DNA of 64,000 bases from Macrostomum lignano (lineage: Eukaryota). This document shows, in pieces, positions 3,876-53,123 of this stretch. A program made the position numbers and the translations under genes. The notes below the pieces were generated by a model. It worked only from the letters and a program-made list of their open reading frames with translations. It was not told the origin of the DNA and did not search any database. Position 1 is the stretch's first letter, and each line of letters opens with the position of its first letter. The stretch is taken from positions 124,001 through 188,000 of the forward strand of contig NIVC01001021.1 in NCBI GenBank assembly GCA_002269645.1. Reading direction: 5' to 3'.

Positions 3876-4125
3876 GTCTGATTTTGACGGTCGACTGGAA
3901 GACGCAGCTTTGGCGCAGGTTTTCTGTTGTTTTCTTCCTGTGTATTTGACTTTAAATAAAGTATTCGAGTCAAGTGGCAAGTTTTCCCTTAGCAGTGTAG
4001 GGCATGGTTGTTCAATAATCTTGCAAGCTAGAATTTGATCTCAGTACGTGCTCACAATCAGGATCATGGTTCAGATGTAAAAATTGGAACGTACTCAACG
4101 CATGAGCTTCGTATATGCATTCCAG

Positions 4126-5661
4126 AAATTTCGCAGCGAATCACTATTGCATACACGAGCATACGTTAAGTCTGCTAATTGATGAGTTCTACAACCGGGA
4201 CGAGCTGCTCATACCACGCGTTCTTGGCACGTCCCCTCAGGACCAGATCCAAATAAAATGCAGATGGGACATCAAACTGAAGATAGCGAAGCCCGGCACC
4301 CAGCTTCGGATCTCAGCATTGCCCAACAAGAAAGACGGACCGAAAACTGCCGATGGGGACGCCAAACTGTCGGTCGACTTCTTGAACAGCAATTCCGTCA
4401 GCGTTACGACCGGCATGTTTCAAGTTTTACCAGCGACAGAGCAGTGAGTACAGCTCAAGCTGATGCTGTTTGTCTCATTGAATCGTTGAATTCGATGAAT
4501 CAAGGAAACCTTGGGGACTTCATTTCAGTCGGCGCTTCACCGTCGAAGTCAACTGGGATCCAGGGATGCAGAAACCGAGCTCCGACTACCTGAGGATATT
4601 GCTGCCGATTCCGGGACAGTGCGGCCGAGACATGCTGTGGTTCAATGGCAGCTGCTATGCTGTCAGTGCAGTGCAGCAGAGTGTGGCTGACGCTACAGAT
4701 AGCGTTGGAGGCGATGCTCAGCTGGCCAGCTTCTCCAGCATGGCTGAGATCAGCGAGTTTGTTGTTGCCAGTGAGTCATTATGAGCTGTCTTCGTTGGAC
4801 TCGCTTTTAAGTACGTACGAGTTGTCTCAAGCACACAAATCCCATCTCATTGAACTGCAGACACGGCAAGGCAGAATAAGTTACCCTACCGACGGCCTCT
4901 GAGTCTGAAACAGCCGGTCCGTCTCGGCATGTTCCACAATGCATCAGCTGCTACCGTGTTGTCCGCGGTCAGGAGTGACAGCGGCTGCCTTCTGCAGCTT
5001 GTGTCGAATTCGTTTAACTCTTCGTAAGAATTTAAGTCAATTGGATTTTTGCTTGGCTGTGTTTTAAATTTCATTTCTGTCTGTCCCCATTTCGCGTGTA
5101 TGGCAATTTTTAGAACTAGTTTGAGGGTTTGTGGCCCTCTGATTGGCTAACCATTCTAGCTGTGGCCTTTGATAGTTTCTTGTCAATCTGCCCTGGGCCT
5201 TTTTGCTGAGCCATGCATTCACGTTGTTGGTGAGCTAATCTACAGAAATCCAAGTGCACAATTATAACGTTTTCAGACTGACTGGCCGAGGGAGAGGTCC
5301 ATGCTTGTCACTAAGGGTGACTGACACAGACTCACCGGTGGTCGAGTTCGTTAACTGCAGCAGCCCGATGCTGTCGCTGCTGAGCTTCCCGGAGACTGCG
5401 CGCTCCGTGCCGAGCTCAGCTCACTGCAGCGGCGGCGAGCTCATGAAGCTGGTTCAACGGAAGCTGAGCACAACTGCGGTTCATTCTCGGAGAGCTCAGA
5501 TAGCGATTTTCTCTTCCGTTGGTATCGTTGTCTTCTTGCTGATTTCCGTCTCAGTGGGCTTGGCGTACTACAAGCGAGTCAGGCAGCAGAACAATACAAG
5601 CAACAATTCAGTAAGACGACGTGACCTTGCAATGTCCGGCTTCGGCCCTTTAATATTTTAA
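4126..5661 (+). CDS. 3' part of a single-pass membrane protein with CUB-like and degenerate C-type lectin-like ectodomain; exons 4126-4443, 4529-4770, 4861-5023, 5277-5661
   Basis: All three GT-AG introns keep frame (phases 2, 1, 2). CRWDIKLKIAKPGTQLRI is CUB-like; CGRDMLWFNGSCYAVS...LASFSS is a CTLD N-terminus; the TM segment IAIFSSVGIVVFLLISVSVGLAYY is followed by KRVR. Confidence 0.75.
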
Positions 5662-5790
5662 GGGCCCGCCCGCCTTTCATTATGAAGTTTATGTCTTTTG
5701 AAGTTTAGGTTGGGGAGGCTAAAAAAAGACTAATAATTTTTTATGAATTAAGCTCCTGATATCTAAGCTTTGACACTTCATCAATCCCCC

Positions 5791-5925
5791 GTCAGCCTTG
5801 ACATCTCAGCGAATTCTCCGTCAGCCTTGACATCTCAGCGAATTCTCCGTCAGCCTTGACATCTCAGCGAATTCTCCGTCAGCCTTGAAATCTCAGCGAA
5901 TTCTCCGTCAGCCTTGACATCTCTG
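5791..5925. repeat. 29-bp tandem repeat (GTCAGCCTTGACATCTCAGCGAATTCTCC), ~4.5 copies
   Basis: Read directly from the sequence. Confidence 0.9.
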
Positions 5926-6769
5926 AATTTATTTTCGTAAGCCTTGATCTGAGAAATTTTCTATGAGCCTTGACATCTTAGCAATTTCCCAATGAATCTT
6001 TTATATTTGACATGACGCTACTTTTATGCTTGACATGATGCTTTTTTGTGTTTTTTTTTCCTTTCCATGAGTTTTCTTCACATTAAGAATCATTTAATAA
6101 TAAAATCGAACTCTCAAAATTCGAACCTGTCGCTGCATTAGCAGTTCAGTTCGTTCACGTCTAGGCTAGCTCTCATCCAACTGATGACATGAATTGTATC
6201 ACTTAGTATTCAACACTCACATTAAGTCGAGTCGGTTGGAGTAAAACTCAGAAAACAGTTATGACGTAACAGATTATTCAAAAAGTCTGATATTCTCCAT
6301 TAAAGTTAACAATATGGTTACGCAATCTAAATCACGTCTTGTACTTTGCTTCCACACTGTTTTAAACACTGTGACGCAATTCAAGTCAGTCACAATTACG
6401 CCAGTAAACTGACTAAAAAACCCCGTTGTGATGCAATCTTTCTCAGAATCGCAATAGTCAATCAGTTCTTTCTCTAGCATTCTTACAACGCGTTTCAAGT
6501 CGAAAAGTCTGCTTAGGCTTTTTAAAAAGCTGCTTATTGAATATCTCTTATTTAATCCCTTTAGCATCGAGCAATTTTTTAGCCCAAACTGATGTACCAT
6601 CATGGGAAAATTTCTGATCGAACGTGTAATTGACTTGCAATATTTTTATCGATTTTCTCGAACTGAGTGAGTGAGTTATATTATAATATCAATGTACATC
6701 TCAGCTCAAACCGCAGTCTTTCGACATTACAGTGGCCTCGCAAGCAAGCCCATTTTGGCTAGCCACTCG

Positions 6770-8330
6770 ATCATGGCTCAATTCATCTCACTGCCACCCC
6801 CTGAGCAATTCAGCACTAGTGAAGATCAACAGAATGCCGGTAAACGCTATAACAAATGGTCCGATCAAGCATCTTTATCGAAGCATCATGCATCAAAGAC
6901 GAAACTCAGAAGTGCACGCTTCTGGCCCACACGGCCGGCTGAGAAATCGCGCAAGGCATAAAGGACCTGCTAAATGACAAGAAAGGCAGCCTTGAAACTC
7001 TGCTTGCAGCAACTAAAGAGCACTTCAAGGAGCGCAACAGCATCGTATTTTCCCGCTATCAGTTTCGCCTATGTGTTCAGCAACATCGCCCATGTGTTCA
7101 GCAAACAGGAGAGCCCGTGGACTCCTGGTACTCCCGACTCAACTCATGAGAGGCATGAGAGTTCTTAGCACTCAAGAACTCCTTAATCAGAGATCAGTTA
7201 GTGGCGACATGCCGCTCCGATAAACTTTGACGAATATTGCTGCAGGAGTCCAACATTCAGGCTGCAGGAGTCCATGAGCGATGCGTTGAAAGCAGTTGAA
7301 GCAGTTCAGAGACAGCGAAACGCTCCTGAACAGTCAGCGGGTCCCCGGCGGCCCAGCAAACAGCGGCCCAACCAGCTGCTATCGATGCGGCAAGCGCGGA
7401 CACAGCTCATGCAACGCGGCAAAAGGCAACACCTGCCAGGCATGCGGCAAGCTAAACCAGCATGCAGACAACGCAGGCCTCAGACAAGCTCCAACATCAA
7501 CGCCGTAGCGGACAAAGAAGCTGAGGCGGTCTTCACCGATCACGATTGGCTTAAGGCCTTCACTATCCAGTCGCAAAAACCTGCGCCCACACACAACTCC
7601 GCCAACACTCGTCTGAAGATCGAGGGCAAGGACTTCATTGTACTCGGGGATAGTGGAGCCAGCTGCAGCGCCGTGAGCACCGCAGCTAGCAGACATCTAT
7701 TTTCATTTCCCATCACTAAAGGCTGTGGAACGATACGAGACACCGCTTTCAACATGGGAATTCTACACATTCAACATCCAACGGCTAAAGTCGACTCTGT
7801 GCGGCCCACGGAAAATCCAGCTGCATCAAGTATTCAAGCACTGTTCACCAAGTACAGAGGTGTTGACCAAGAACTTCCAACCGAACTCCGCATCAGCAGC
7901 ATCCTTGGTGAGTTCCAGTCCATCTTCGAAGGTCTTGGCTGCGTGAAGGGCGTCGAGGTTGATGTTCGTCTTTGACCAGAAGCTGTCTCGGTCTGCCACA
8001 CACCCTCCAGAGTTCCCGTCCACCAGCGGTCGCGGAACTACAGGCCCTCCTCGACCAAGGCATCATCAACGGCCTGTCACCGTGGGTCTCTCGCATGGTT
8101 GTCGTCCCGAAAGTAAGCAGTGGCGTCCGCATCTGCCAGGACCTGCGTGACGTCAACTCATTAGCCGTGCCAGAAAAGTAGCCCATCCGAACCTTTGAGG
8201 AGATCGCGGACGAGATGGCGGGTTCCACGGTGTTCAGCGAGCTCGACATCGTGAAGGCTTTCCATCAGATTTTTTGTCAAACCGGAACATCTTGGGTCGT
8301 ATGCGACTGAACAGACAGCATGGGATTCAC
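6770..8330 (+). pseudogene. Degenerate gag-pol of the old LTR element (zinc knuckle, protease, partial RT)
   Basis: CYRCGKRGHSSC...CQACGK knuckle, IVLGDSGASCS protease, and SPWVSRMVVVPK...RICQDLRDVN...FSELDIVKAFHQI RT motifs lie across several frames with stops. RT C-half, RNase H and integrase are deleted. Confidence 0.85.
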
Positions 8331-8707
8331 CAGCGCATCCGAGATACGCATCTAGATGCCTTTCGAGGTTGAACCCTGGACTTTCATCGACAAGCGAGGC
8401 AATTCCTACCTCCCGCGGCAAGGCGACCGGACATGCACTCGCCACTAGCTGACGCACATCCGGACTCTGACAGCGGCTGAGGACCCACCACCAGAAGCGG
8501 ACGCGCGGCCAAGGACAAGCCTATCAGCTACAGAGTTTGACGCCTAGTTTGTGCTAAGAACTGAGCCAATGTGCATTTTTACCCTTCATCTTTTATTCCT
8601 TATTCCTTATCATTTTATTTCGCGTTTCTGAGCAGTTTAGCTTTTCGGGAGAAATGTATTGCCTTGCAATATTGTTATCAATTTTCCCCAACTGAGTGAG
8701 TGAGTTA

Positions 8708-9416
8708 TGTAGTAGGGGGTTTAGTTTCAAGCAGTTTTGCTAAGGCGTTTGCCATTCGTCGAGTCAATTATTTTAGTAGCATGAATTCTAGAATAAGCAG
8801 TTTTGCTTTTACGCTACTATTAGTAGTTCACCTTCGGGAAAATATCTGAAGTTATGGGAATTCGAGTCTTAGCGGGTTTCTCTATTAGTAAAAGGCTGTT
8901 TGGCCTCGGGAAAAGCATCCTGTTCAGGACCGTCCATTGGACAACATTTGTAAGAGATCTAAGTCTCAAATAAGCCAGACTAAGGGAGTCTCCCCTTTAT
9001 AAAATAAAAGAATATATATAAGAAAGTATAAAAGGTAAGATCGGGGTAAAATAGGGAGGCTAAGAGGAGTCTACCGCTTAGTCAAAACGGAGTCTACCGA
9101 GAATAGGAATTAGTACAGTCAGTTAGATAGAAGTACGGGAAAGGAACCAGGAGTCTACCGGTTCTAATAACGTAGTAATAATAGTGCTTAAATCTTTGCA
9201 TATTTGGTTCAATAATATCATTTTCTTTTGTTTGTTTATTCCAATAATCTTCCATGAAGTCGACTCTTGTCTCACTTATTTTAATCTAAAACTATTATTA
9301 TAAGGGACATTAGTCTGGTGGCAGCAACCTACCAAATTAGAGTACATAATAACAGAAGTAATAATAGAAAACCAGAATAAACCAGTAGCCTAAACCGCAG
9401 GTACCACGCGTGTCCA
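8708..9416 (+). repeat. 5' LTR (709 bp)
   Basis: TGTAGTAG...GTGTCCA. By eye it differs from the 3' LTR at 3 positions, all within the first ~145 bp. Confidence 0.95.
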
Positions 9417-9418
9417 AT

Positions 9419-9428
9419 TGGTGGCAGC
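9419..9428 (+). promoter_or_regulatory. Primer-binding site TGGTGGCAGC (complementary to a tRNA-Leu-type 3' end)
   Basis: Lies 2 nt after the 5' LTR and begins with TGG. The tRNA assignment comes from recall of the Leu 3' end ...GCUGCCACCA. Confidence 0.7.
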
Positions 9429-9836
9429 TTAGGGGATTAGTAAACCCGAGAAACGCAAAAAGTTAAAGACTGGTGCAAAACTAGCAAAATCAGTAATATA
9501 TATAACCTGCAAAATAAAAACGTTTCGGAAAGTCAGAATCAGGAGAGAAGGTAATCTAAATACTGAAACTAATGCGATAATCCTAAATCCTAGGATTAAC
9601 AAATTAAAGAACGAATTAACGCTTCTATTGAACTAGCAGTTTCGAAATTTGATAGCAAGGTCATAATTGACCCAGTTAAAAGTGAAGAGATCACGCAGTC
9701 TAGCAGTTCTGTTCACAAATTAGAAATAACCAATTAAAAACTAGTTAAATAGATCAGTGACTCAGGAGTCTCCCAGTCTCACTGAATTCAATTAATAGTA
9801 AGTATCAGAAGCGATAATTCGTAATTCGAAAAACTA

Positions 9837-10847
9837 ATGGACGCCAACGAAGTAGTAGAAGCTCTGGCTGAAGGAATTAGAGACAGACTAGACATTAGAA
9901 AGCACATTAGGATCCAAAAGTACACGCCTAATCAAGATATAGACGTATGGATTCAGGCTTTTGAGCAAAGGTGTATCGCAGATGAGATACCTGCAGCCGA
10001 TTGGAAAAATGAACTACTATCTAATCTAGATGTCCAATCAGCGTTTGCTATTGTGACAAGGCTGAATTTAGACCCTAATCTACCGTATGCTGAATTCAAG
10101 GATAGGCTCATCGAACGATTCACGCATGCGGGTAGTGCCCAAGAAGCTAGGGAAGAATTCCGCAGCAGATATCAATCTAAGACAGAGAGCTCTGACGACT
10201 ATGCGGAGAAGCTGACAGAGTTAGCCTATATGGCATTTCCCCACCTAACTAATGACCAAAGACAGGAAGAAGTGGTGGAACAATTTATTAGAGGTGTTAG
10301 GATAACCCCAGAGGCTAGGGAGAAGCTACTGCTAGCACAGGCGAACACACTCCAAGAGACACGTCGAGTTTTGCGACGTATCGAAATGGCGTATACCATG
10401 TCTCGCCGAGGTAGAGATCCAGCTCAGTGCAAGGCAACTGGAGGAGATGAGGCGGAAAGTAGCTTGAGGGAGTTAGTCCGCAAGCAAGGTGAGACACTAG
10501 AAAGCCAGCAGAGGGTACTCCAGGAGTTGCTTCGACACCAGCAGAGTGCTGAGCAGAAGGCTAGACAGAAGCCGTACCAAGGCCAGCAACAGGGCCAAGG
10601 TCAGAAGCAGCCAGTAAAGTGCTTCAAGTGTGGGAAAAGCGGTCACATAGCTAAGCATTGCCAGCAGCAGCAGAATCAGCCGCAGTTTCCGCAGCAGCAG
10701 TTTCCACAACCACCACAGTTTATTCCGTACCAGCCGCAGTACCCGCCGCCGCAGTTCCCGCAGCAGCAGTTCCCGCAGCAGTACCAGAATAAGAATCAGG
10801 GAAACGGAGTAGCCGGAAGCGTAGGAGGCAACGCTTTCCAGAAGTAG
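9837..10847 (+). CDS. gag: Gag (336 aa) with CCHC zinc knuckle and Gln/Pro-rich tail
   Basis: Intact ATG ORF; CFKCGKSGHIAKHC. Confidence 0.95.
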   Translation: MDANEVVEALAEGIRDRLDIRKHIRIQKYTPNQDIDVWIQAFEQRCIADEIPAADWKNELLSNLDVQSAFAIVTRLNLDPNLPYAEFKDRLIERFTHAGSAQEAREEFRSRYQSKTESSDDYAEKLTELAYMAFPHLTNDQRQEEVVEQFIRGVRITPEAREKLLLAQANTLQETRRVLRRIEMAYTMSRRGRDPAQCKATGGDEAESSLRELVRKQGETLESQQRVLQELLRHQQSAEQKARQKPYQGQQQGQGQKQPVKCFKCGKSGHIAKHCQQQQNQPQFPQQQFPQPPQFIPYQPQYPPPQFPQQQFPQQYQNKNQGNGVAGSVGGNAFQK

Positions 10848-13800
10848 ACAGCCAGCAGTCTGTAGCCTCGCAACCTGTAAATAGCAGCGATAGTTTTTCT
10901 GTAAATAGTGAATTGAATTCTTTGTATAACAGTAGACATGCGCAACCATTTAATCAATCATTTAATCAACCAAATATTTATTCTCAGCACTTTTCACACG
11001 CACCACAGCAACAACCTTGTTCTAGTAAGCAGCAAATTAAACCACAAAATTTAAGCGAACCAACTAAGAAGCAAAATTACGATCCGTATATTACTGGCAG
11101 CATTCTAAATAAGGAGGTAGTTTATCTATTAGACACTGGCAGCAATAGGAACATTCTAGGACGTGAAACCTGGAAACACTTGTTCACTGGCAAGAATAGT
11201 CACTTAATTAAACAATGGAACAATAGAATCGTATCGTTCACGGAAGAGCCGATTCCAATTAAAGGTTCCGTAGTTATTAAGGCGACATTCGGTGATTTCG
11301 AAGAAGAAATAGAGTTTCTCTTATGTGACGCAGAAGTAGACAATGTAATAGGCGTGACGTTTGTCCAACAATATTGTAATGCTATCGACTTTGAGACAGG
11401 AATGCTAACTATGAAGCAGGGAACCAGAATTCCACTTCGTTCTACCAGAGCTAAGCCTCAGGTTAAGAGAATCTATGTTGCAGAAAAGACGACAGTTCCA
11501 GCTAATAGTTCAGGATTAGTCAAGGTTAGATTAGCCACAGGTAGTGAATCCAATTTCGGAGTGCCGTCAGTTGTTGAGCCACTCAGATCAGGATTGAAGA
11601 CTAGAGCAGAGAAGGTAACTGTAGTACCAAGCTTAGTAACTCTAAGGCAAGGAGAAGCGTATCTAGAAGTGATTAACACCAGCTCACAGGAAGCTAGAGT
11701 GCCAGCAGCAGCACTAGTAGGAATGGCTAAGCCACTTTTAGCTAGTGAATTAAACTATCTTAAAGATCAACCAGAGAAAGAGCAGTTATGCCAGAATAAG
11801 AACACGCAGTTTTGCGAAAACATCAGACAGGTTCAAGACAAGTCAGAAGACTGGATTAGTGAGATTAACATAGGAACTGAACTGACTCAGGAGCAGAGAC
11901 AGAAGGTGATCGAAGTCGTCAAGGAGCATTCAGCAGCTTTCTCGCAGCACGAGTTAGACTTAGGCAGAACGCATTTAGTCACACATGAGATTATCTTGAA
12001 GGACAACAACCCAGTTCAGATACCAGCTAGAAAGATTCCACCTCATTGGATCAAGGAGGTAGATGAGCAGTTAGATCTCATGTTGGCTAGAGGCATCATT
12101 AGGCCTAGTTACTCGCAGTACTCGACTCCATTAGTCATAGTACCTAAGAAAGATGGTTCGCTGAGATTAGTTAACGACTATCGAGCACTAAACAACAAAT
12201 CGGAGTACTTTCCGTATCCAATAACTAATATTAATGAAACATTCTCGTGTCTCCATGGAGCCAGTCAATTTTCTACGTTAGATCTATTCTCAGGATATTA
12301 TCAGATAGCTCTTAGGGAAGAAGATAAATGCAAAACTAGTTTTCCAACTTTACATCGAGGCTCGTTTGAGTACGAAGTTTTGCCAATGGGATTGCAAGGA
12401 GCTCCAGGAACTTTCCAAAGGTGCATGAACTTAGTTCTTAAGGACATTGCACAGAAGTTCGCCATAGCTTACTTAGACGATGTAATAGTTTATAGTACAG
12501 ACTTTGAATCTCACTTAGAACACCTGAAAGAAGTGCTCAAAAGACTAATCCAAGCTAATATGAAACTAAAAGCGAAGAAATGTCACCTTTTCAAATCAGA
12601 ACTGCAATATCTAGGACACATCATAGGCAAATCAGGAATTAAAAGGGATGCGTCAAAGTTAGAAACGATTAGGAACTGGCCAAAACCTAAATCTGTGACA
12701 GAGCTTCGAAGTTTTCTCGGACTCTGTAACTATTATCGAAAGTTTGTTAGAGATTTCGCCGAGGTAGCAGCACCACTCTGTGAGCTAACGAAGAAGAACA
12801 TCAAGTGTATCCAGGACAATTGGACCAGGATTCATGATGAATGCTTCGAGCTGTTGAAGGAACGGATGTGTTCCGAAGAAGTGCTTGCTTACCCAGAGTT
12901 TAATACGGACCCCCAAGTTTATTTTGTGTTAGACACTGATGCATCAGATGTCAGAATTGGGGCGGTCTTAAATCAAGTGCAGAGCGACGGAGTTGAGAGA
13001 CCGATCGCGTATTATAGTCGAAAAATGAGGCAGTCAGAAAGTAGATACCCGATTACGAGGAAGGAGCTTCTAGCGATTGTTGACTCGCTGAAGTACTTCA
13101 GGTTTTACCTCGTAGGGAAACGTTTTAAGGTGCGCACTGATCACAATGCCCTAACCTGGTTGCTTCGCCAGACCGAACAGACAGGCATTTTAGGTCGTTG
13201 GATCGAGAGACTTAGTGAATTTGATTTTGAGATTGAGCATAGAAGTGGCCCTAAGCATGTGAATGCTGATGCTCTATCCAGGATCCCGGATCCTCAACAG
13301 GATGAGTCATCCCCATATGCCAGGTCGCTTAGCTGTAGGGCAACTGTGAACACAGACCCAGCATCAGCTGTTACTGTGAGCTCAGGCAATTCCGCGCAAG
13401 CCGAAACCTGTAGTCTACACAGTGGAGTTACGTCATGCTGTTCGCCGCAGAATATGGCGCCGAACCGACACAATACTCCGAGTTTTAGTAGCAGGTTGCT
13501 AAGCAAAAGGCAAGAACAGGAGCCTAAGGAAAGGTACCCGCTTGTTTGCAATGCACTGCTGAGTGATTATCTTCGTAGCCCTGTGCGTCGCGAAAATTCG
13601 GTCGCAGCTCAGCTAGCCGACCCCGCACTAAGCTATGTCAGGAATCTGATTGAGTCTGACTTGCCGAAACCGAACTTTCAAGAAAGACTAGAATTGTCTC
13701 ACGAGATTAGAAATCTGCTAGGTTATTATGAACTCTTCAGGATAGAAGACGGTGTTCTCCGAATAGACTTAAATTCAGGGCGGACCGAATCTAAAGTGGT

Positions 13801-14620
13801 GTTGCCCAAGTCTTTGGATGGTGAAGTTTTTCACGAATTCCACGATTCACCGTTAGCAGGTCATCTAGGAAGAGATAAAACTTATCAGCGAGTTAAGGAA
13901 AGATTTTGGAGAGTAGGATTAGCTACAGCAGTCGAAAAGTACGTCGCCAAGTGCAAATCTTGTTTAGAAAGTAAATCAAGAAAGCGATGCAAGGCACCAG
14001 TGCAGAATTTTCCTATTGTCGAGCCATTCTCACGCCTTCACATTGATTTGATAGGTCCGATCAGTCAGACTAGCAAATCTGGTAACAAATATGTCTTGTC
14101 AGTTATTGACAGCACTAGCAAATTTCCGTTTGCGTTTGCAATTAAAAATCAGAAGGCTAAGACAGTAATCAAAATTCTGCAGGAGCGAGTTTTCGCCGAC
14201 TTTGGAATACCTCAGTGGATTCACACGGATCAGGGAACACAATTTACAGGGAGAGCATTTAGGAAATTTCTAGACCTCTATGGGATTAGGCACACTAGGA
14301 CAACAAGCTATCATCCACAAAGCAATGGGCTAGTAGAGAATTTAAACAAACAAATTAAGTCAATTCTTACCTGTTTGCTCGAGAAAGAACATGCGAACTG
14401 GGATGTTCTATTGCCCGGTTGTGTAACCGCATTGCGCACCAGTACGCATACAGCCACAGGTTTCAGCCCGCATTATCTTGTGTTTGGAAGAGAGGCCCGG
14501 ATGCCGAGTGACAATGTGTTCCAGCAGCCAAAGGCGTTCGCCGATCTGCCTGCTTACGTTCAAGAGCACTTAACTCACCTGCAAGAGGGGCAAGAACTCG
14601 CCAACAGCGGCTCAAATTAA
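10793..14620 (+). CDS. pol: Pol (protease-RT-RNase H-integrase), -1 frame relative to gag
   Basis: LLDTGS protease, YLDD RT, DTDAS RNase H, H-H-C-C and D,D,E integrase motifs. The frame opens after TAA at 10790-10792 and overlaps the end of gag. Confidence 0.95.
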   Translation, partial: ESGKRSSRKRRRQRFPEVDSQQSVASQPVNSSDSFSVNSELNSLYNSRHAQPFNQSFNQPNIYSQHFSHAPQQQPCSSKQQIKPQNLSEPTKKQNYDPYITGSILNKEVVYLLDTGSNRNILGRETWKHLFTGKNSHLIKQWNNRIVSFTEEPIPIKGSVVIKATFGDFEEEIEFLLCDAEVDNVIGVTFVQQYCNAIDFETGMLTMKQGTRIPLRSTRAKPQVKRIYVAEKTTVPANSSGLVKVRLATGSESNFGVPSVVEPLRSGLKTRAEKVTVVPSLVTLRQGEAYLEVINTSSQEARVPAAALVGMAKPLLASELNYLKDQPEKEQLCQNKNTQFCENIRQVQDKSEDWISEINIGTELTQEQRQKVIEVVKEHSAAFSQHELDLGRTHLVTHEIILKDNNPVQIPARKIPPHWIKEVDEQLDLMLARGIIRPSYSQYSTPLVIVPKKDGSLRLVNDYRALNNKSEYFPYPITNINETFSCLHGASQFSTLDLFSGYYQIALREEDKCKTSFPTLHRGSFEYEVLPMGLQGAPGTFQRCMNLVLKDIAQKFAIAYLDDVIVYSTDFESHLEHLKEVLKRLIQANMKLKAKKCHLFKSELQYLGHIIGKSGIKRDASKLETIRNWPKPKSVTELRSFLGLCNYYRKFVRDFAEVAAPLCELTKKNIKCIQDNWTRIHDECFELLKERMCSEEVLAYPEFNTDPQVYFVLDTDASDVRIGAVLNQVQSDGVERPIAYYSRKMRQSESRYPITRKELLAIVDSLKYFRFYLVGKRFKVRTDHNALTWLLRQTEQTGILGRWIERLSEFDFEIEHRSGPKHVNADALSRIPDPQQDESSPYARSLSCRATVNTDPASAVTVSSGNSAQAETCSLHSGVTSCCSPQNMAPNRHNTPSFSSRLLSKRQEQEPKERYPLVCNALLSDYLRSPVRRENSVAAQLADPALSYVRNLIESDLPKPNFQERLELSHEIRNLLGYYELFRIEDGVLRIDLNSGRTESKVVLPKSLDGEVFHEFHDSPLAGHLGRDKTYQRVKERFWRVGLATAVEKYVAKCKSCLESKSRKRCKAPVQNFPIVEPFSRLHIDLIGPISQTSKSGNKYVLSVIDSTSKFPFAFAIKNQKAKTVIKILQERVFADFGIPQWIHTDQGTQFTGRAFRKFLDLYGIRHTRTTSYHPQSNGLVENLNKQIKSILTCLLEKEHANWDVLLPGCVTALRTSTHTATGFSPHYLVFGREARMPSDNVFQQPKAFADLPAYVQEHLTHLQEGQELANSGSN

Positions 14621-15242
14621 TACAACGTAAGCGTGAGCAGCACTATTCTAACAAACCTAAACAACCAGACTTACCTATAGGGAGCTTAGTTTTCATTAAC
14701 AACCCAGTCATCACACAGACAGAAGCCAACAAGTTCCACAGGAAGAGAAGAGCAGTCTACGAGGTCATAGAACAGTTATCAGAAGTAGTTTACAGGATTA
14801 GATTATTAAACAAAAGTACTAAGGCTAGAAAAGAGGAATTAGTCATGCATAGGGATAATTTACTACCCGTACCAACAGCCGATTACGTTAGTGAGGAAGA
14901 AAAGCCAGAAAGCAGTTGTGCCAGGCGACCGAAACTTCGAGAAATGTACCGCTTAATCCGATGTACGAAGCAGCCGACAGTGAGAGTGAACATGAAGATG
15001 AAGTGCAGTTTGTGCCAGTGCAAATTCAAAATAATGTTCCAGTGCCAGTGCAGGTTATGCCAGTGCAGGATATACCAGTGCAAGATATGCCAGTACAAAA
15101 TAACGAACAGCCAGTAGTCGAAAATAGACCAGTTAGAAATAGACGGGAGCCGAGTAGATTAGCGATAGACCCAGGCCAGAAGAGCTACGTACAGAGAGTA
15201 AAGGAGTTGTTTAACCCCTATCTACTCTTCCAGCTCGAATAG
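14605..15242 (+). pseudogene. Integrase C-terminal (GPY/F-like) domain and Pol tail displaced by two frameshifts (~14605, ~14915)
   Basis: The shifted frame reads RLKLIQRK...KFHRKRRAVYEVIEQLSEVVYRIRL...VMHRDNLLP. A further frame ends ...RPVRNRREPSRL, a typical Gypsy Pol tail. Confidence 0.8.
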
Positions 15243-15246
15243 CATT

Positions 15247-16074
15247 ATGGCTGATGCCCCGGAGCGCATTTATCCTATTAAAAAGATTTATTCCGGAAAA
15301 AGGAGACATGATTCAGACGAAAATGAACCCCCGAGAGTGCGCTCAGTAAGGGTGATAGAAACGGCTGACGAGCCCGAGAAACCCCATCCACGGGAAGAAC
15401 CGATTACGAAGGAAGAAGAAGGCGAAGGTAGATTAATAATAGATCTGGGAGGCGCAGATCTGGAAGCCGAGACAAGGAAGCAGGAAGAAGAGAGAAGAGA
15501 AGAGCACGATGAGTTTTTACGAATGTTGCTAGACGTTAGTCTGCCCGATATTGAAGAGGCCTTGAGCCCTGCCAATGAGGCACCAGTGGCAGAGGAACCA
15601 CCAAGCAATGATGTCCAAGAGCATAAGCCGGCTCCGGTGGCGGATGAGCCTCCCTTGGATGTCGCCGGACTATTTCGAGACGACGTACCACCGCCGAGCA
15701 ACCAAGACGCAGCGACCGAACCTTCCGGCGCCAGTCCAAGGAAGTTCCGGAAGTGCACCAAGGCCCTGAAAAGGTGGTTGCTGCAAACCGGCAACACGGG
15801 CTGGTACGATCCGACAGTGCCAGCGGCCTGCACACGATTTCTCGCTAAGGCTACGGCGGCGCAGCGCATCCAGAGCTTAGAGGTGGCCTGCACCTATGCG
15901 TTGCAGCATGCAGAGGAACGGGCGAAAGGACCAATATCACCGTACCAGGTGAGTGAACATCTACGCGACCTGGCAGAATTATTTGACCCGGAAGGCAAGA
16001 AAACGCCAGCAACCGGCCTGCTTTACCAGTGTGCACAGAGGGCGCCAACCTGCCGACCCCTAGGGAATCTTTGA
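15247..16074 (+). CDS. Third ORF of the Gypsy element (275 aa), function unknown, no signal peptide or TM segment
   Basis: ATG in good context (A at -3, G at +4), 13 nt after a branchpoint/polypyrimidine/CAG acceptor at 15211-15233. Acidic/Pro-rich N-half and helical C-half. Confidence 0.75.
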   Translation: MADAPERIYPIKKIYSGKRRHDSDENEPPRVRSVRVIETADEPEKPHPREEPITKEEEGEGRLIIDLGGADLEAETRKQEEERREEHDEFLRMLLDVSLPDIEEALSPANEAPVAEEPPSNDVQEHKPAPVADEPPLDVAGLFRDDVPPPSNQDAATEPSGASPRKFRKCTKALKRWLLQTGNTGWYDPTVPAACTRFLAKATAAQRIQSLEVACTYALQHAEERAKGPISPYQVSEHLRDLAELFDPEGKKTPATGLLYQCAQRAPTCRPLGNL

Positions 16075-16652
16075 GTTGAAAATTTAATAACCCAGGGATT
16101 AACTCTTCCATTGCTGCTAATTTCCTTACTACACAACCACACAGCTTTAATTTTTTTTCGATGTTGTATGCATTTTTACACAGTGCCATAGTGCCATTTA
16201 TTTTCTTTTTTTTCTCAAATTATTGCACCGCTTCTTTGCCTTATATATCTTTACATATCGATAATATTCAGGAAAGAAACCTATATGGTCATTGCCTATT
16301 TCATTAATCCCATTATGCTCAATTATTACTGTTCAATGCTCACATACTATTGCTCAACTAATATTGTATGGCTTAATTATCGTCGTTTACTTTCATTAAT
16401 CATGTACTCGTACTGTTTATTACTTTTGCTGATAGTATGCTATTATTATTACCTATACTGTATATTACTAATTAATCATACTATGTTCCATACTATGCTA
16501 TGCTACCACTACTCAGTTATTATTATTGCTTAATCATGCTCATTATATTGCTTATATTTAGTCCATGCATGCCACTATTAATACTGTCTGAATTACTTGA
16601 AATAAACCCGACAATAACTAAATATGCAAAGGGGTTTGCACATTTTTTTTTA

Positions 16653-16664
16653 GTGGGGGGTAAG
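16653..16664 (+). promoter_or_regulatory. Polypurine tract
   Basis: GTGGGGGGTAAG immediately before the 3' LTR. Confidence 0.8.
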
Positions 16665-17373
16665 TGTAGTAGGGGGTTTAGTTTCAAGCAGTTTTGCTAA
16701 GGCGTTTGCCTTTCGTCGAGTCAATTATTTTAGTAGCATGAATTCTAGAATAAGCAGTTTTGCTTTTACGCTACTATTAGTAGTTCACCTTTGGGAAAAT
16801 ATCTGAAGTTACGGGAATTCGAGTCTTAGCGGGTTTCTCTATTAGTAAAAGGCTGTTTGGCCTCGGGAAAAGCATCCTGTTCAGGACCGTCCATTGGACA
16901 ACATTTGTAAGAGATCTAAGTCTCAAATAAGCCAGACTAAGGGAGTCTCCCCTTTATAAAATAAAAGAATATATATAAGAAAGTATAAAAGGTAAGATCG
17001 GGGTAAAATAGGGAGGCTAAGAGGAGTCTACCGCTTAGTCAAAACGGAGTCTACCGAGAATAGGAATTAGTACAGTCAGTTAGATAGAAGTACGGGAAAG
17101 GAACCAGGAGTCTACCGGTTCTAATAACGTAGTAATAATAGTGCTTAAATCTTTGCATATTTGGTTCAATAATATCATTTTCTTTTGTTTGTTTATTCCA
17201 ATAATCTTCCATGAAGTCGACTCTTGTCTCACTTATTTTAATCTAAAACTATTATTATAAGGGACATTAGTCTGGTGGCAGCAACCTACCAAATTAGAGT
17301 ACATAATAACAGAAGTAATAATAGAAAACCAGAATAAACCAGTAGCCTAAACCGCAGGTACCACGCGTGTCCA
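16665..17373 (+). repeat. 3' LTR (709 bp)
   Basis: Near-identical to 8708-9416. Confidence 0.95.
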
Positions 17374-17587
17374 GTTATAATATAATATCAATGTAGTTCG
17401 TACATCTTGGGCTGCACGCGGTCAATGATTCATGTACGTCGTATTGTTCACATTTAGAAACTCAAAAAATATACGAGTATAAATCGCTAACTTGCAGGCG
17501 TGGAGGCCAGTTTGGGCCTCTGTTTTCTCGCTCAGCTTAAACCGCAGTCTTCAGACTTTACATAACAGGGCAAGTTTCATAAAATCA

Positions 17588-19700: not shown

Positions 19701-19769
19701 GGTGGGCAATGGGACCGCTTTCTCGTAGCGCCCCCGAGCACATGGATCCCCCATGTGGCGAAGTGTCCC
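19701..19769 (+). ncRNA. HDV-like self-cleaving ribozyme motif at the element 5' end
   Basis: P1 GGUGGGC/GCCC-CC, P2 GGGAC-C/GUGUCCC, P3 GCU/AGC, L3 UUCUCGU, P1.1 UC/GA, P4 CACAUGG/CCAUGUG, J4/2 GCGAA. P1 and P2 each lack one A. Confidence 0.8.
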
Positions 19770-19789
19770 TCCTTCCCCGGACAGCACGT

Positions 19790-22700
19790 ACGAAGAGCAA
19801 CGATTACGACAACGGCCCACCCGATCAGCGGGAAAGCGGGAACCTCGACCACGTCCTCCGCCTACGGGGCGGCAGCGACCCCCCGTCTAAAGGAAGCAGA
19901 CACGGCAACCGTCGCAACAGGCGCCATGCTAAAGCACTGGAAGAGCTCCTTATCCTACAGTTCAACTGTAACGGCATTAGAGCCAGGACTCCGGAACTAA
20001 CCAGGTGGCTGGATACGCATCGCCCTGCGGCAGTCCTTCTGCAAGAGACAAAACTAACGCCGGACACGAGCTACACCGCCCCGAGCGGCTATAGTGTAGC
20101 AGCCCGTGCCGACGGCAGCAACAAAATTGACATTTTCCCAGGCTCAGACGCCACCGAGAGCGCAACAGAAACTGCCACCGCCACCCGGCCATTCCAGCCC
20201 GGCGCCACGTGCACCGCCCGCACCTTCCCGCGAAGGCCACGGTGCCGTCTTCGCTGGCCTGATGACAGAACTGACTGGTGTAAAGGCTGCAGATCATCCC
20301 GATCGGCTTGCACCCGGCGCAATGAGCCATGGCCAGACGCGAAGGCCCAAATCGGCGCGGACAACCACAATAAAACCCAAAAAAATAACAACGCGCAATC
20401 CGGACCTGACCGCCACACGGCCACGACGCAACCAAACGATACAACCGGAGCGACGTCGGGACCCCTCGGCAAAAACACCACTGAAAAGCGGAAAAACAAA
20501 AACTTGCAACCCGGTCTCGACACCGCCTCCACATGGCTGTGCGCAGCCTGCAACAATATCATTACCAAACGCCAGACTAGCCTCCGCTGCAACCAGTGCT
20601 GGAACTGGCTACACCTGAAATGTAGCGGCCTCAAGCGCAGTAAAGACTGGAACGACGAATACATCGGAAGCTGCTGCTCGACACCACAAGATGCGAGCCG
20701 ATCCAGCACACCGTCAACATTGCCCAAGTCTACACCTAAAGATCCAGTAACGGTCAGACCAGCCAACCCGTCGACCCCACCGCAACGCCGCTCCAAGAGA
20801 GCCGGTCGGGAGGCGCCCTCATCATGGTCAGAAACGATATCAACTTCACCACCCTGCCCGACCAATCCAAAGCCGCACTTGATATTGCTGCGTGCACTCT
20901 CCACCTCAAAGGTCAAGGCGACCTCAACATCGCCAGTGTGTACGCTGCCCCTCACAGTGACCAACGCCAACATGAAGCCTGGACTCCGGATCTCTCTTGT
21001 ATACCGATAACGGGCAACACCGTCATAGGCGGAGATTTCAATTGTCACGGTTACTGGGACCCTTTCCAGCCCGGAGATACCAGGGGCGCCGAACTGGAAA
21101 CCTGGGCGAGTAATAACAACCTCAACATCGGCAACACCAGGAACTCTGCGACAAGACTCAACCCAGCGACGGGAGGCAAATCGGCACCGGACTGCACCTT
21201 GGCCCGAGGCCGTCCGAGCGCAGTTGTTTGCAGAACCTGGTCCACCGCTAAAGATCTTGGCTCCGATCATCTGCCTATCACCTTCTGCGTGCAAGCGCGT
21301 CGCCCTCATCGACAACAACGACAAGCGCAGTGGTCGTACAAGAAGGCGAATTGGCAGATATTTAAAGAGACCCTTCAAAATCATGTCCAGGACGCGGCGG
21401 AATCCCCCGAAGCAGAACACAAACGTATCTGCAAAGCCATACTGCAAGCCGCCGCAGCAGCTATCCCGAAGGGAGCCCGGAACGGCGCGCAGAACATTTC
21501 GAGACCTTTCTGGAATGACGAATGCGATACAGCGCTACACAGAAATCAGAAAGCCCGCAAAAATGTCGAAACAGATGCATTCGACACAAACATGCAGGAA
21601 CTCACACAAGCGCGCACGTGCCTTCGCAATACCATTCACAACGCCAAAAAAGAATTCTGGTCGGAAACGTGTAAAGAAATGAAGATAGACACCAATCTCT
21701 ACAGGACCCTCCGCAACATGAGAGGCGAAGCCAAACCACAAGCAACCAGCTCCACCATTAGCTATACCAACCCAACTTCTGGTAGGACTAAAGTGGCTAT
21801 CACTAAAAAGAATAAGGCCGACCTCTTCATGCAAATCTACGCTAAAGAATCCCGGCTAGATAAGGGAGACAACGACGAGGCTATAGTGAAAGAGGCTAAC
21901 CGCATCCTCCGCAACTGCAGAGCTACCGCCACCAACCACGGCCCGGAATCAGACTTTACTATCGGCGAATTCCGTCACATTATCCGCAGACTAAAATCCG
22001 GTAAATGCCCTGGCCCTGACCAGGTCAGCAATGAGATGTTGAAACAGCTCCCCCTGGCCATGGAGCTTCAGATCCTCAACCTTCTGAACAGAGTCTGGAA
22101 GGGTGACCAAGTCCCCACCGAATGGCGAAGAGCCACTATCATACCGATTCTTAAGAAGGACAAATCGCCAAGCTCACCGTCCTCGTACCGACCTATTGCC
22201 CTTACGAGCTCCATCTGCAAGGTCGGAGAGAAACTCGTACAGCAAAGACTTAACGCTTACCTCGAACGTGAACACAAACTGGCCCCAGAGCAGGCGGGCT
22301 TTCGCCAGGGCAGGAGCACCGAAGAGGTCCTCGCCCACACCTGCCAATCGATTTTTATGGTTTTGAGGAACAACCAGCGAAACGCTCTGCCATATGCCTA
22401 CTCGACTTCAGCAAGGCCTATGACAGAGTATGGCGCGCTGCTCTGACTGTTAAGCTATACGAGCTCACGGTACCTGCTAGATTCATCCTCTGGGTGCACA
22501 AATTCCTCAGAGACCGCCGCGCCAGGGTGAAATGGCAACAAACTATCAGCAGGGAAAGAGTCCTCGAAGAGGGCCTTCCACAAGGAAGCGTCATCGCCCC
22601 CACCCTGTGGACTACGTACGTCAACGACCTGCCGACGACCATAAAAAGGGCTAGCCCTGATTGTAAAATTAACCTATACGCCGACGACAGCTCACTGTTA

Positions 22701-24411
22701 GCCACCAGCAGGAAGCTAACGGACTGCGCCGACATCCTGCAACCAGCCATTGATGCGGCCGCCGAATGGTGTAAGCGGTGGAAGGTCACCCTCAGCACCG
22801 AGAAATGCATCTACTCGACCTTCACTCTCTCGCCACAAGAGAACAACGGCAAAGTCCGACTCAACCTGCACATTAACGGAGCCGAACTTAAATACGATCC
22901 GCACCCCGACTCCTAGGCCTGACCCTTGACGATCAGCTAACCTTCAACAAGCATGGAGCCGAGGTAAAGGCCCGCATGGCCCGGCGCAGAGGCGCACTCA
23001 CGGCCATTGCCCACCGCAACAGTGGAGCGGACCAAAACATCCTCCGCTCGGCCTATATCACCACTATCAGAGCGTGTGCAGACTACGGAAGCGGTATATG
23101 GCTAACCGGAGCAGCGCCTAGCACGCGACGCATGATCGAACAACAGCAGTCGATATGCGCGCGGATGATCACAGGCTGCTGCAGTACTACCCGCAACGAG
23201 ACCACGCTCAACATCGCCAGGCTCCCCCGATCGGCTCGATCGCCATAGAACGCGCGGCCATGCTTCGCGAGCGCATTCTTCGTCTCCCGCCGGACTGCCC
23301 GGCAGTGGATACCGCCGCCCGCTCGACGAGACCCCGCCTAAAAAACCGAAGCTATGACCCGCAAGACGAACCGGGAAGCGGAATAGGAGCCCGAGACCGA
23401 GAACGGCCACACCGCGGATGCTGGAGGAGGGCCGCACGAGAACTCCCTGTTGTAGCGACGCTCGATGAAATGGCGCGCGAGCAGATCATCATCGCCGCCC
23501 CCTGGGAAAGCGACACCAGCGCGGAAGTTATCTTCGACACAACGGCGAGTATGGTCAACCGCAAAGCCCCGGCAGAAGAACGCGCCAGAGCGGCCGACGC
23601 GGTCCTCAGAGCGGCCCAAGAGCTCGAGATCACGGCCTGGACGGACGGCTCCGCCAACGAAGGCTGCACCCACGGAGGGGGAGCGGCCGTGATCCACTAC
23701 AATGGTACCACTACTGAGCACCTAGCACCGGCCGGGACATACTGCAGCAGCTACCAAGCAGAAATGACTGCTATCGCAACCGCCCTTCGTGCCTCGTTGG
23801 AGCTACACGCCGCCGCCAACAGTATAGCCATCCTCACAGACAGCCTCAGCGCCCTGTCGGCACTGGCCCGCGGCCCGGCCGGCCAGCGTAATGCTGCCGG
23901 GCATGCCTGCAGGGACACCATCGCGAGAGCCACCTACTCCAAGGTCTACTTCGGATGGGTACCTGGCCACTGCCAGATTGCCGGCAACGAAGCGGCCGAC
24001 AGAGCGGCGGCTATGGCAGCTACCCTTCCGCAGAGCGAAGCTGCCATCACGTTAGACTCCGCGAGGGCTGCTATCCGCCGCGATCGCCGACGCCGCGACG
24101 CAGAGCCTACCAACCAGCCGTCACCCACCGACACCACCCGCAATCGACGCGAGCAGGTGTTGGTTAATCAACTCAGAGCGGGCGTCTCCACCATCTGCGC
24201 CGCCACCCGCCAACGTCTTGGTCTCCAAGAGGACGACAAGTGTAGTGACTGCGGCGCGGTGGACACGGCCGACCACCTCCTCCGCCGCTGCCCAAGAGGT
24301 GACGCCGCCAGAGCCCGCTACTTCGGCGTCGAGGACCCCCTATCGGCGCCGACAGGCCGGATCATCGCGTTCGTACGTGCTGTGGGGCGCCTGAGCCCCC
24401 GCCAATATTGA
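19790..24411 (+). pseudogene. Retrotransposon polyprotein (~1540 aa when reconstructed), broken by 4 apparent single-base deletions (~20806, ~22356, ~22908, ~23226)
   Basis: ORF track pieces 19580-21010, 20824-22446, 22494-22916, 22976-23248 and 23155-24411 join into one colinear protein if one base is added at each junction. Confidence 0.85.
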
Positions 24412-32143: not shown

Positions 32144-34385
32144 TTAGCACAGCGGAGTGTCAAACAGCAGGTAGTTCTTGAGCACAGTCGGCAGCGGCAG
32201 CTCGCCCACCGACTTGGGCAGTGGAGCTGGAAGCCGGTCGCGAATCAGCACCCGGCACAGGCGCATCAGGGACGTACTGGTCAGGCTGAACACCAGGGCC
32301 TTTTGCTCCGGCCCGATCCGGGACATTTTAGCGATGGCAGCTCGGTCAACCTTGACTGCGGCGGATAATAGCAGCTCGGCCAGTTGAGCATTCTCCGGAT
32401 TGTTCAACACGCGGGACAGGTGGCCTTGAACACCGTATCTGAGAGGGGGGCATTTAATTCGTAAATGTACATGTGCTTATTGAAAGAAAATGCAAAGAGA
32501 AGTTGTAATTTTGCACCTTTATTCCCCTGGCACTTCTACCTGTACATCCTCATGATGTATTATAAACTGATGTATTGTAAATGTACAGAGACCATCATAG
32601 ACTCACGTACATCCTCATTCAGACCACCATAGACTCACCTGCATCCTCATTCAGACCATAGACTCACCTGCATCCTCATTCAGACCACCATAGACTCACC
32701 TGCATCCTCATTCAGACCACCATAGACTCACCTGCATCCTCATTCAGACCATAGACTCACCTGCATCCTCATTCAGACCATAGACTCGCCTGCATCCTCA
32801 TTCAGACCACCATAGACTCACCTGCATCCTCATTCAGACCACCATAGACTCACCTGCATCCTCATTCAGACCATAGACTCGCCTGCATCCTCATTCAGAC
32901 CATACATTCACCTGCATCCTCATTCAGACCATACATTCACCTGCATCCTCATTCAGACCATCATAGACTCGCCTGCATCCTCATTCAGACCATACATTCA
33001 CCTGCATCCTCATTCAGACAACCATGTACTCACCTGCATCCTCATACCGACCATAGACTCACCTGCATCCTCATTCAGACCATACACTCACCTGCATCCT
33101 TATTAAGACCATAGACTCATGCTCATCCTCATGCATCCTCATGCTGCAGGCCCTGTATCCACGCCCTTCATTACCTAAGAGCATGAACTGAAGTCAATCC
33201 CCAAGGTATATTAAAAAGTGAGCAACTGACATTCTCTCACCTGTCCAACAGAGTGTACCCGCAAGCTCCCTGACAAAGATTGATTTTGGCTCCAAACTGT
33301 ACCAGCAGGTACACAGTAAAGGCGTCGAGCTCCTCGTTGCAGCCGAGGTATTCAACTAGCGGCGGCAGGCAGGGTGCATCCAGGCAGATCTTGTCCTTGA
33401 CGTTGCTATGCTGATTCGGCCGCGCCCCGGCGTCTAATAGCAGTTTGAGCAGCACGTTGCGACTCTCGAGTCGAACTACGGAGCACAGAAACTGCAGCGG
33501 GTAGATTTCGTATCTGCCCGACTGGTTTGGCCGATTCGGGTCGGCTCGATTGCGCAACAGGCAGCACAGCATAGGCGGACTGTTTAGCTTGATGGCCAGC
33601 TCCAGCGCTGTCGTGTCGTTCTGCACAAACTGGTCGGGATCGGCGCCGCTGTTCAGCAGCAGCTGCATAAGGTCGGTACGCCGGTTCTTCATCGCGTAGA
33701 ACATGGCCGACTTGCCGCCGAAAGCGAATGACGAACGTAGGTCGACGTTGGCCTTGTGGCACAGCAGCACCATGGCGGCTTCCAGCCGGCTCTCCTTACA
33801 GGCGCGCATCAGCGGGCTGAGGCCCCAACGGTTGAACGTGTCCGGATTGGCTCCGGCTCTGAGCAGCAGCTCGAGGCAGAGCAGATTCTCCAGGCTCATC
33901 ACCGAGACCAGGTCGCCCATGAAGTAGCGACAGTTCGGATTGGCGCCAAGCCGCAGCAGGGCCTCCACGCACAGCAGGTGGCCGTTCTCCACAGCGTAGG
34001 ACAGCGGGTCCTCGACCGTGTCCTCGGCCGGGATGTCGGCGAAGTCCGCGTCGCGACGATCGTAGCAGTTCGGGCGCTGCCAGTGCAGGCGAGCGCCGGC
34101 CTCGGCCAGTGCCACCAGGGCGCCCGTGCTGCCCCGGCGAGCGGCGATGTGAATCGGCGACAGTCCCTCCTCGTCGGCGCAGTTCAGATTGCAGCCGTGC
34201 TTAATCAGCAGCTGCAGCAGCTGCAGCTTGTTGTAGTGAGCCGCGTAGTGCACCAGCGACATGCCTTTGACGCGGATCTGGCTCAGGCAGACGCGGCCGC
34301 TAGCCAGGAGCAGCTGAAGGTCAGCCGCTGGTTTGTCGCTGCGCACCGCGTAGGCAAACAGCTTTGTGAAGTCGGCCGTTTCCAT
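32144..34385 (-). CDS. Ankyrin repeat and SOCS box protein (ASB-like), 479 aa; exons 34385-33241 and 32438-32144
   Basis: Multiple ankyrin repeats (GLSPIHIAA, PLSYAVENG, GLSPLMRAC, TALELAI). The phase-2 GT-AG intron joins in frame. SOCS box SLMRLCRVLIR...LPLPTVLKNYL. Confidence 0.92.
32590..33125. repeat. 29/32-bp intronic minisatellite (ACCATAGACTCACCTGCATCCTCATTCAG)
   Basis: Lies inside ASB intron 32439-33240. Confidence 0.92.
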
Positions 34386-53000: not shown

Positions 53001-53123
53001 GCTGCGGCTTGAGAAGATTCTCGGAATTCCCCTGACCGTGGATCGGCGCAGACAGTCGGAGAAAATTGCGGCCAACGAGACGTCAGAGCCGCCGTCTTCA
53101 GAGGGCGGCTGCGCTGTGGCCAT
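50080..53123 (-). CDS. DEG/ENaC (amiloride-sensitive sodium channel family) subunit, ~577 aa; exons 53123-52780, 52333-51901, 51036-50080
   Basis: Pre-TM1 STVRGIPRIF, TM1, FPSFTICNFKP, Cys-rich ectodomain, TM2 LIGQIGGALALFCGITLICVAELVELV. Both GT-AG introns (phase 2, phase 0) join in frame. Confidence 0.93.
51300..51510 (-). mobile_element. tRNA-headed SINE-like element in the ENaC intron
   Basis: Minus strand reads GGTGCCGTAGCCCAGTG...GGCTCGATTCC (A/B-box-like). A related, more decayed head faces outward at ~51530-51610 (+), sharing CACATT.ATTTGGGGCT. Confidence 0.5.
52545..52742. repeat. 15-bp repeat (GAGGAAGAACCGGTA) in ENaC intron 1
   Basis: Same unit as 58850-59075. Confidence 0.9.

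Follow-up and report, generated by a model that had tools for sequence, protein, structure and literature searches.

CERV, a protein of the Caenorhabditis elegans element Cer1, handles the export of intron-containing RNA, and this function has been demonstrated (PMC10309623). Bdelloid rotifer elements carry third open reading frames in the env slot that are described as family-specific, diverse and typically expressed from spliced messages (PMC5408684). In insect endogenous retroviruses that slot holds a spliced env, and the position of its upstream exon is reported to vary by subclade (PMC12992720). Third genes other than env have been reported before, so the slot is of a known kind; the ORF3 family of Macrostomum lignano described here is an accessory protein that is apparently undescribed. 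No description of it was found in a literature search with subscription journals and bioRxiv supplements outside its coverage. A classification of Macrostomum LTR elements (PMC12801592) does not mention extra ORFs, the strings 'ORF', 'splic' and 'envelope' being absent from its main text and 'ORF3' from its supplements.

The DNA analysed, hereafter the window, is a stretch of 64,000 nt from contig NIVC01001021.1 (positions 124 001–188 000, forward strand). ORF3 belongs to a young Gypsy LTR retrotransposon at 8708–17373, all features of which lie on the plus strand. The 5′ LTR (8708–9416, TG...CA) differs from the 3′ LTR (16665–17373) at 3 of 709 nt, and a 4-bp target duplication (8704–8707 and 17374–17377) flanks the element. 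A primer-binding-site-like sequence (9419–9436) follows immediately 3′ of the first LTR, and a polypurine-tract-like sequence (16652–16664) precedes the second. These are features of Ty3/Gypsy elements, as is the gene order, gag followed by protease, reverse transcriptase, RNase H and integrase, the protease match being weak (E 0.09). The gag gene (9837–10847) encodes 336 aa with a CCHC zinc knuckle. The pol gene (10793–15242), which ends in a C-terminal tail and a final stop at 15240–15242, lies in the −1 frame and would be reached by frameshifting at a slippery-like site, G GGA AAC (10799–10805). In the window copy the pol frame is broken twice, near 14600 and 14940, in the C-terminal part of integrase.

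Several other sequences in the window were recognized. Fragments at 4115–8249, upstream of the element, resemble a second, decayed Gypsy element. By eye, frameshifted ORFs at 19709–24411 resemble a non-LTR retrotransposon (endonuclease, PHD-like finger, reverse transcriptase and RNase H), 33237–34385 is an ankyrin-repeat ORF, 61878–63020 a mariner-like transposase ORF, and 50080–53123 (minus strand) a multi-exon gene resembling a DEG/ENaC channel. In the last, a branch-pyrimidine-CAG site that may be a trans-splice acceptor lies 27 nt upstream of the ATG.

An earlier note, made from the letters of the window alone, had reported a 275-aa ORF in the env position with a strong start context. ORF3 was indeed found at 15247–16074, with A at −3 and G at +4 of its ATG. 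The note had proposed conservation and dN/dS across family copies as checks, and both favour a functional gene. ORF3 is conserved, its C-terminal domain giving 78 matches in the genome at 33–100% identity. Whole-ORF dN/dS was finite in 5 of 16 pairs and ranged there from 0.05 to 0.31, which indicates purifying rather than neutral evolution; in the other 11 pairs synonymous sites were saturated, with dN of 0.24–0.74. Forty-three of the 45 closest integrase matches sit on contigs with an ORF3 match (checked by eye), while one of the remaining two lies on a contig that ends too early and the other is a copy without visible ORF3. As judged from sequence comparison, ORF3 is a real gene under strong purifying selection.

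Full ORF3 proteins fall into three types, A, B and C, which are 58–77%, about 40% and 34% identical to the window protein, respectively. Divergence is much faster in ORF3 than in pol. In one copy, identity to the window element is 97–100% across most of the LTR, gag and pol, but 57–75% across ORF3 and the AT-rich 3′ UTR (16075–16664), and these last two have been exchanged between backbones that are 99% identical. Since the backbone is near-identical while both diverge, ORF3 and the 3′ UTR travel together as a cassette. Comparison with loci L042 and L044 showed types A and B to be 92–97% identical in the reverse transcriptase region (11900–13300) but 70–85% identical in gag and integrase; this suggests that the two types have recombined with each other. 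The 3′ UTR of L042 also carries a GC-rich insertion of ∼560 nt. Within the LTR, a further primer-site-like sequence (9317–9328) is kept in types A and B, and repeated GGAGTCT motifs differ by type. Loci L040 and L041 contain open-frame ORF3 pieces on the strand opposite to a nearby integrase. They were considered as non-autonomous ORF3-only copies and rejected because they look rearranged; apparently they represent one duplicated rearranged copy.

The ORF3 protein begins with a basic N-terminus (aa 1–32), followed by LIIDL (aa 63–67), which resembles a SUMO-interacting motif (SIM), a charged helix (aa 69–96), an acidic and proline-rich linker and a helical domain. AlphaFold gave low confidence to the N-terminal half, with one long helix at 69–96, and predicted five helices at aa 164–265 (15736–16041; pLDDT 67 with the domain folded alone), in agreement with the compact helical C-terminal half noticed earlier. 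The best 19-residue hydropathy window was at most 0.65 in all 12 family proteins, which bears out the observation that ORF3 lacks a signal peptide and transmembrane segment and indicates that it is neither an Env nor a membrane fusogen. A role in transmission, with ORF3 as a substitute for Env, would account for its place in the env slot and its env-like splice signals. It is, however, very improbable, as none of the 12 proteins has a hydrophobic segment and ORF3 carries basic motifs of nuclear type.

No well-described domain was matched by ORF3, as the earlier note had anticipated. Pfam searches with the full protein and with domain sequences (14/14 and 31/31) returned no DEDDy, GDSL, J-domain, chromodomain or TatD match, and there was no credible match for the protein or its domain in Pfam, PDB sequences or Atlas. 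A word-indexed search with the full protein and with the domain alignment of the ORF3 family found no homologue outside the M. lignano genome. When 1.84 billion representatives were searched with a profile, six hits came up, which were rejected: each consisted of several weak stretches, and the two that were inspected are repeat proteins. The queries in these searches for outside homologues were drawn from the ORF3 family alignment, without the sister lineages S1–S4 described below. Scans of metagenome and viral contigs revealed no relative. Foldseek found no match to the domain at E 0.001 in PDB or a viral library. The best VIA score, Z 7.5 on the pLDDT-67 model, is in the usual range for helical bundles and does not imply a novel fold. 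Comparison with Cullin repeats (CUL3, Z 7.2, rmsd 3.1, 97 aligned) was tied with unrelated chains.

The five-helix orphan domain is probably common to sister Gypsy lineages. We examined 18 of 105 integrase matches at 63–68% identity, and 11 of these had a third ORF that starts with a basic or acidic stretch, continues as a long linker of low complexity and closes with a domain of ∼100 aa. Lineages S1–S3 have domains of clear mutual homology (hhalign 70–92%). The link between the ORF3 family domain and the sister domain is weaker: hhalign gave a probability of 1–5% and E 0.0075–0.05, with an alignment to S1–S3 that is colinear across about 75 columns. A profile of S1–S3 placed 13 family ORFs in the top 30 of 2183 ORFs, as compared with 0.84 expected, the copies not being independent. 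Four of 14 domain sequences beat 200/200 shuffles, while for five over 10 of the 200 shuffles did as well, plus one borderline at 11. The profile, alignment and shuffle results, together with the shared slot, make it likely that the ORF3 family domain is homologous to that of S1–S3. Five pairs of sister ORF3s had dN/dS of 0.00–0.12 in the domain and 0.15–0.35 in the linker, again consistent with purifying selection. In S4 (L135, L143) a third ORF of 323–409 aa with a similar layout lies beyond an AT-rich spacer, and its helical end domain is possibly related to the others. The third ORF of S1 (L134, L146–L175) begins with a KEN-box-like motif.

An integrase tree placed the Macrostomum elements in one group, apart from nine outside proteins. 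ORF3 is separate from Pol in S1, S4 and the ORF3 family. In S2 and S3 it is in frame with Pol, and there the Pol frame continues into ORF3 without a stop in 22 distinct fused contexts. This arrangement would fit a partner or targeting module of integrase, comparable to a chromodomain, that is fused to Pol in some lineages and separate in others, and the basic clusters of such a module could help nuclear entry. The tree, however, has separate ORF3 in three earlier branches and confines the fusion to a single later one, with support of 91/88 that is not starred. Moreover, the fused lineages keep the splice acceptor described below, with an ATG 7 nt behind it, which argues for separate expression there too. 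We consider the integrase-partner reading unlikely. In the S2 and S3 loci (L128–L145, L176–L235), one protein may be produced both fused and alone.

The sequence elements from which the earlier note had derived a 3′ splice acceptor (15211–15233, overlapping the pol tail) were all present: a branch-like TTAAC (15211–15215), a pyrimidine tract and CAG (15231–15233). This is the sole site in the 8.7-kb element that combines a branch motif, a pyrimidine tract and YTNCAG, as compared with 0.36 such sites per shuffled element. Of 28 distinct upstream contexts, 27 have YTNCAG 12–19 nt ahead of the ORF3 ATG. The site resembles the acceptors of a host gene in the same window and fits the published motifs of the host, in which 30% of genes are reported to be trans-spliced and [T/C]TNCAG is the top acceptor motif (PMC8629364). 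In the window element the acceptor is 45 nt downstream of a KSY motif in the integrase tail; in the sister lineages this distance is 47 or 59 nt, and the codon phase is different. Constraint on the protein cannot explain a motif that is kept in two codon phases, which points to a constraint at the level of RNA. The acceptor thus looks real, and spliced expression of ORF3 through 15233 is probable.

The donor proposed in the earlier note, AG/GTAATC at 9550/9551 (9548–9556), is present in the sequence and ranks 6th of 365 GT sites by a simple donor score, but its role is doubtful. It is found in type A only, GT being absent from 7/7 aligned type B copies, and it does not conform to the host donor consensus GT[AG]AG (PMC8629364). 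A better candidate is AAG/GTAAGA in the LTR, at 9034/9035 (9032–9040), which all three types have kept at the equivalent position. A mid-LTR G/GTAAG was present in 18 of 19 loci in which the LTR start was found, with one more identified by eye, against an expectation of 0.17–0.27 per shuffled LTR. In S1–S3 a GT[AG]AG site occurs at 239–310 in 8/8 complete or near-complete LTRs, two further LTRs having been recovered in part only; S4 has no such site. We put the chance that ORF3 RNA is spliced from 9034 at about even, and this donor may sit upstream of the transcription start.

A candidate internal poly(A) site lies ahead of the polypurine tract (16601–16651) and comprises AATAAA (16601–16606), a G-loop hairpin (core 16625–16640) and a T-run. 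In 28 of 33 distinct segments AATAAA or ATTAAA was found 59–66 nt upstream of the 3′ LTR. The hairpin shows one compensatory change in type C. Most sister lineages likewise have an AATAAA-type signal upstream of the 3′ LTR.

Assembled contigs from seven probable RNA runs in four studies contained, among the matches listed, neither a junction nor a loose end at 15233/15234, and in five of the seven runs contigs crossed the acceptor unspliced. Contigs drop rare forms and may contain DNA, so that they show presence, not absence. In a search of runs for ORF3 none of the holders listed was recorded as RNA, the seven runs being probable RNA. Inspection of 29 ORF3 starts in 30 loci gave no retro-copied spliced RNA. 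ORF3 might be expressed by a route other than cis-splicing from the LTR: by spliced-leader trans-splicing, by stop-restart on the full-length transcript or through an internal promoter. The frequency of trans-splicing in this host and its preferred acceptor motif favour the first of these, and contigs could lose a short leader; a pol stop 1–4 nt upstream of the ORF3 ATG in all three types favours the second. On the other hand, the LTRs retain a donor of host type, the matches listed include no leader-like loose end at 15234, and stop-restart is inapplicable to the fused lineages, which retain the acceptor. We regard these alternative routes, whose merits are a separate question from the function of ORF3, as a serious possibility that falls short of even odds. 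What stands of the earlier reading is the splice acceptor and a conserved accessory gene that does not encode Env and lacks a recognized domain; what does not is the donor at 9550.

Short linear motifs in the linkers were counted against shuffled linkers, with patterns in some cases set after the sequences had been viewed. A basic cluster was present in 12/12 family proteins (6.1 expected). A SIM-like hydrophobic-acidic motif was found in 11/12 (0.3 expected), although the loose SIM and EN..P patterns were defined after the alignment had been seen and related copies are not independent. Ten of 12 S2 proteins have an IDLT-type SIM motif (0.0 expected) resembling the PIAS2 peptide VDVIDLTIESS (PMC9071424). 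TQT-like anchors for the hub protein LC8 occur in 12/12 S2 proteins (1.25 expected) and in 3/12 of the ORF3 family; many TQT peptides are reported not to bind LC8 (PMC6607443). A leucine-rich export-signal pattern, in 5/12 family proteins as compared with 2.5 expected, was not clearly enriched. A UHM-ligand motif (ULM) was found in 3/3 S1 proteins (0.01 expected). The peptide concerned, RRRSRWDERP, is a near-copy of ULM5 of SF3b155 (SF3B1), KRKSRWDETP (PMC2791216), and RRRSRWD was found in 17 of 30 S1 loci. ULMs are described as acting at the 3′ splice site (PMC9364107), and it is possible, from this resemblance, that the S1 third ORF is a splicing-factor mimic. The motif was absent from S2, S3 and S4 and occurred in 0/12 family proteins, the window protein included. 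Taken together, the linker motifs all point to a putative nuclear scaffold.

The SIM-like and TQT-like motifs also bear on anti-silencing, in which a nuclear ORF3 would bind SUMO, and in sister lineages also the LC8 hub, and so blunt piRNA-guided chromatin silencing. In Drosophila, piRNA silencing includes a SUMO ligase and LC8, which counts in favour of this reading, and the old divergent ORF3 alleles on near-identical backbones fit a conflict with the host. However, the domain searches found no DNA-binding or enzyme domain in ORF3, the TQT-like anchor is rare in the ORF3 family, and alleles that are 59% identical share near-identical LTRs, so that no co-variation of protein and target is seen. 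We consider anti-silencing possible, though unlikely.

Our tentative preference is for ORF3 as an accessory non-envelope gene, likely expressed from a spliced subgenomic RNA and likely nuclear, that favours its own element's full-length RNA in unspliced form. A role like that of Rev or CERV was ranked first because a strong donor and acceptor flank gag-pol and some RNA must nevertheless stay unspliced and be exported. In this scheme a transcript from the 5′ LTR would be spliced from 9034 to 15233, losing the primer site, gag and pol, and might terminate at the AATAAA ahead of the polypurine tract. The protein would be imported into the nucleus through its basic N-terminus, its linker motifs would dock on host factors, and the helical domain would form the conserved core. 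Enough element RNA would then retain the 6.2-kb intron and be exported, in the manner of HIV Rev or C. elegans CERV. Against this role, the ULM, its strongest hint, is missing from the window protein, and env-bearing elements retain unspliced RNA without a Rev-like protein. Of the three functions suggested in the earlier note, nuclear targeting, anti-silencing and transmission, nuclear regulation fits best, and transmission, in the absence of a membrane segment, is the least likely.

A broader and rather doubtful extension is that ORF3 is a clade-wide Rev-like regulator, in which an orphan five-helix domain is joined to a swappable, host-mimicking linker and expressed from a spliced, internally polyadenylated RNA, and which blocks splicing of its own genome. 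The mimicry would lie, equally doubtfully, in SUMO-binding and LC8-binding motifs and an SF3B1-like splicing-factor ligand. If true, this would be a circuit of the complex-retrovirus type outside Retroviridae, made of new parts. It would address how LTR elements retain and export RNA that still contains introns, and by what means they withstand silencing by piRNAs, questions to which few element-encoded solutions are known. The exchange of cassettes and the lineage-specific motifs, the SF3B1-like peptide foremost, point to specific host partners. The ORF3 family has been kept by selection in at least four lineages, and transgenesis and RNA interference are available in the host animal.

Comparison with the Arabidopsis Ty1/Copia short GAG RNA concerns the message rather than the protein. 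There, splicing coupled to an internal 3′ end is reported to yield a subgenomic RNA that encodes Gag (PMC5580714), whereas the M. lignano RNA, ending at the candidate poly(A) site, would encode a downstream accessory gene. The insect spliced env shares the env slot with ORF3, but insect Env is described as having a signal peptide, furin site, fusion peptide and membrane anchor (PMC12992720), and ORF3 has no hydrophobic segment. The bdelloid third ORFs are captured DEDDy, GDSL, membrane or coiled-coil proteins, as far as described (PMC5408684), whereas Pfam, PDB and the database searched gave no match for M. lignano ORF3. CERV is the nearest likeness: it too is a nuclear, non-Env product of a Gypsy-type LTR element, made from spliced RNA, that carries a basic signal and whose domains have no known relatives (PMC10309623). 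It differs in its 517 aa, five exons, overlap with gag, Cys loop and G-protein-like domain (PMC10309623). ORF3 lies downstream of pol as a single exon, its helical domain is small and its function putative, and the two are compared by description only. That ORF3 acts like CERV is thus a tentative analogy, and one that does not imply relatedness.
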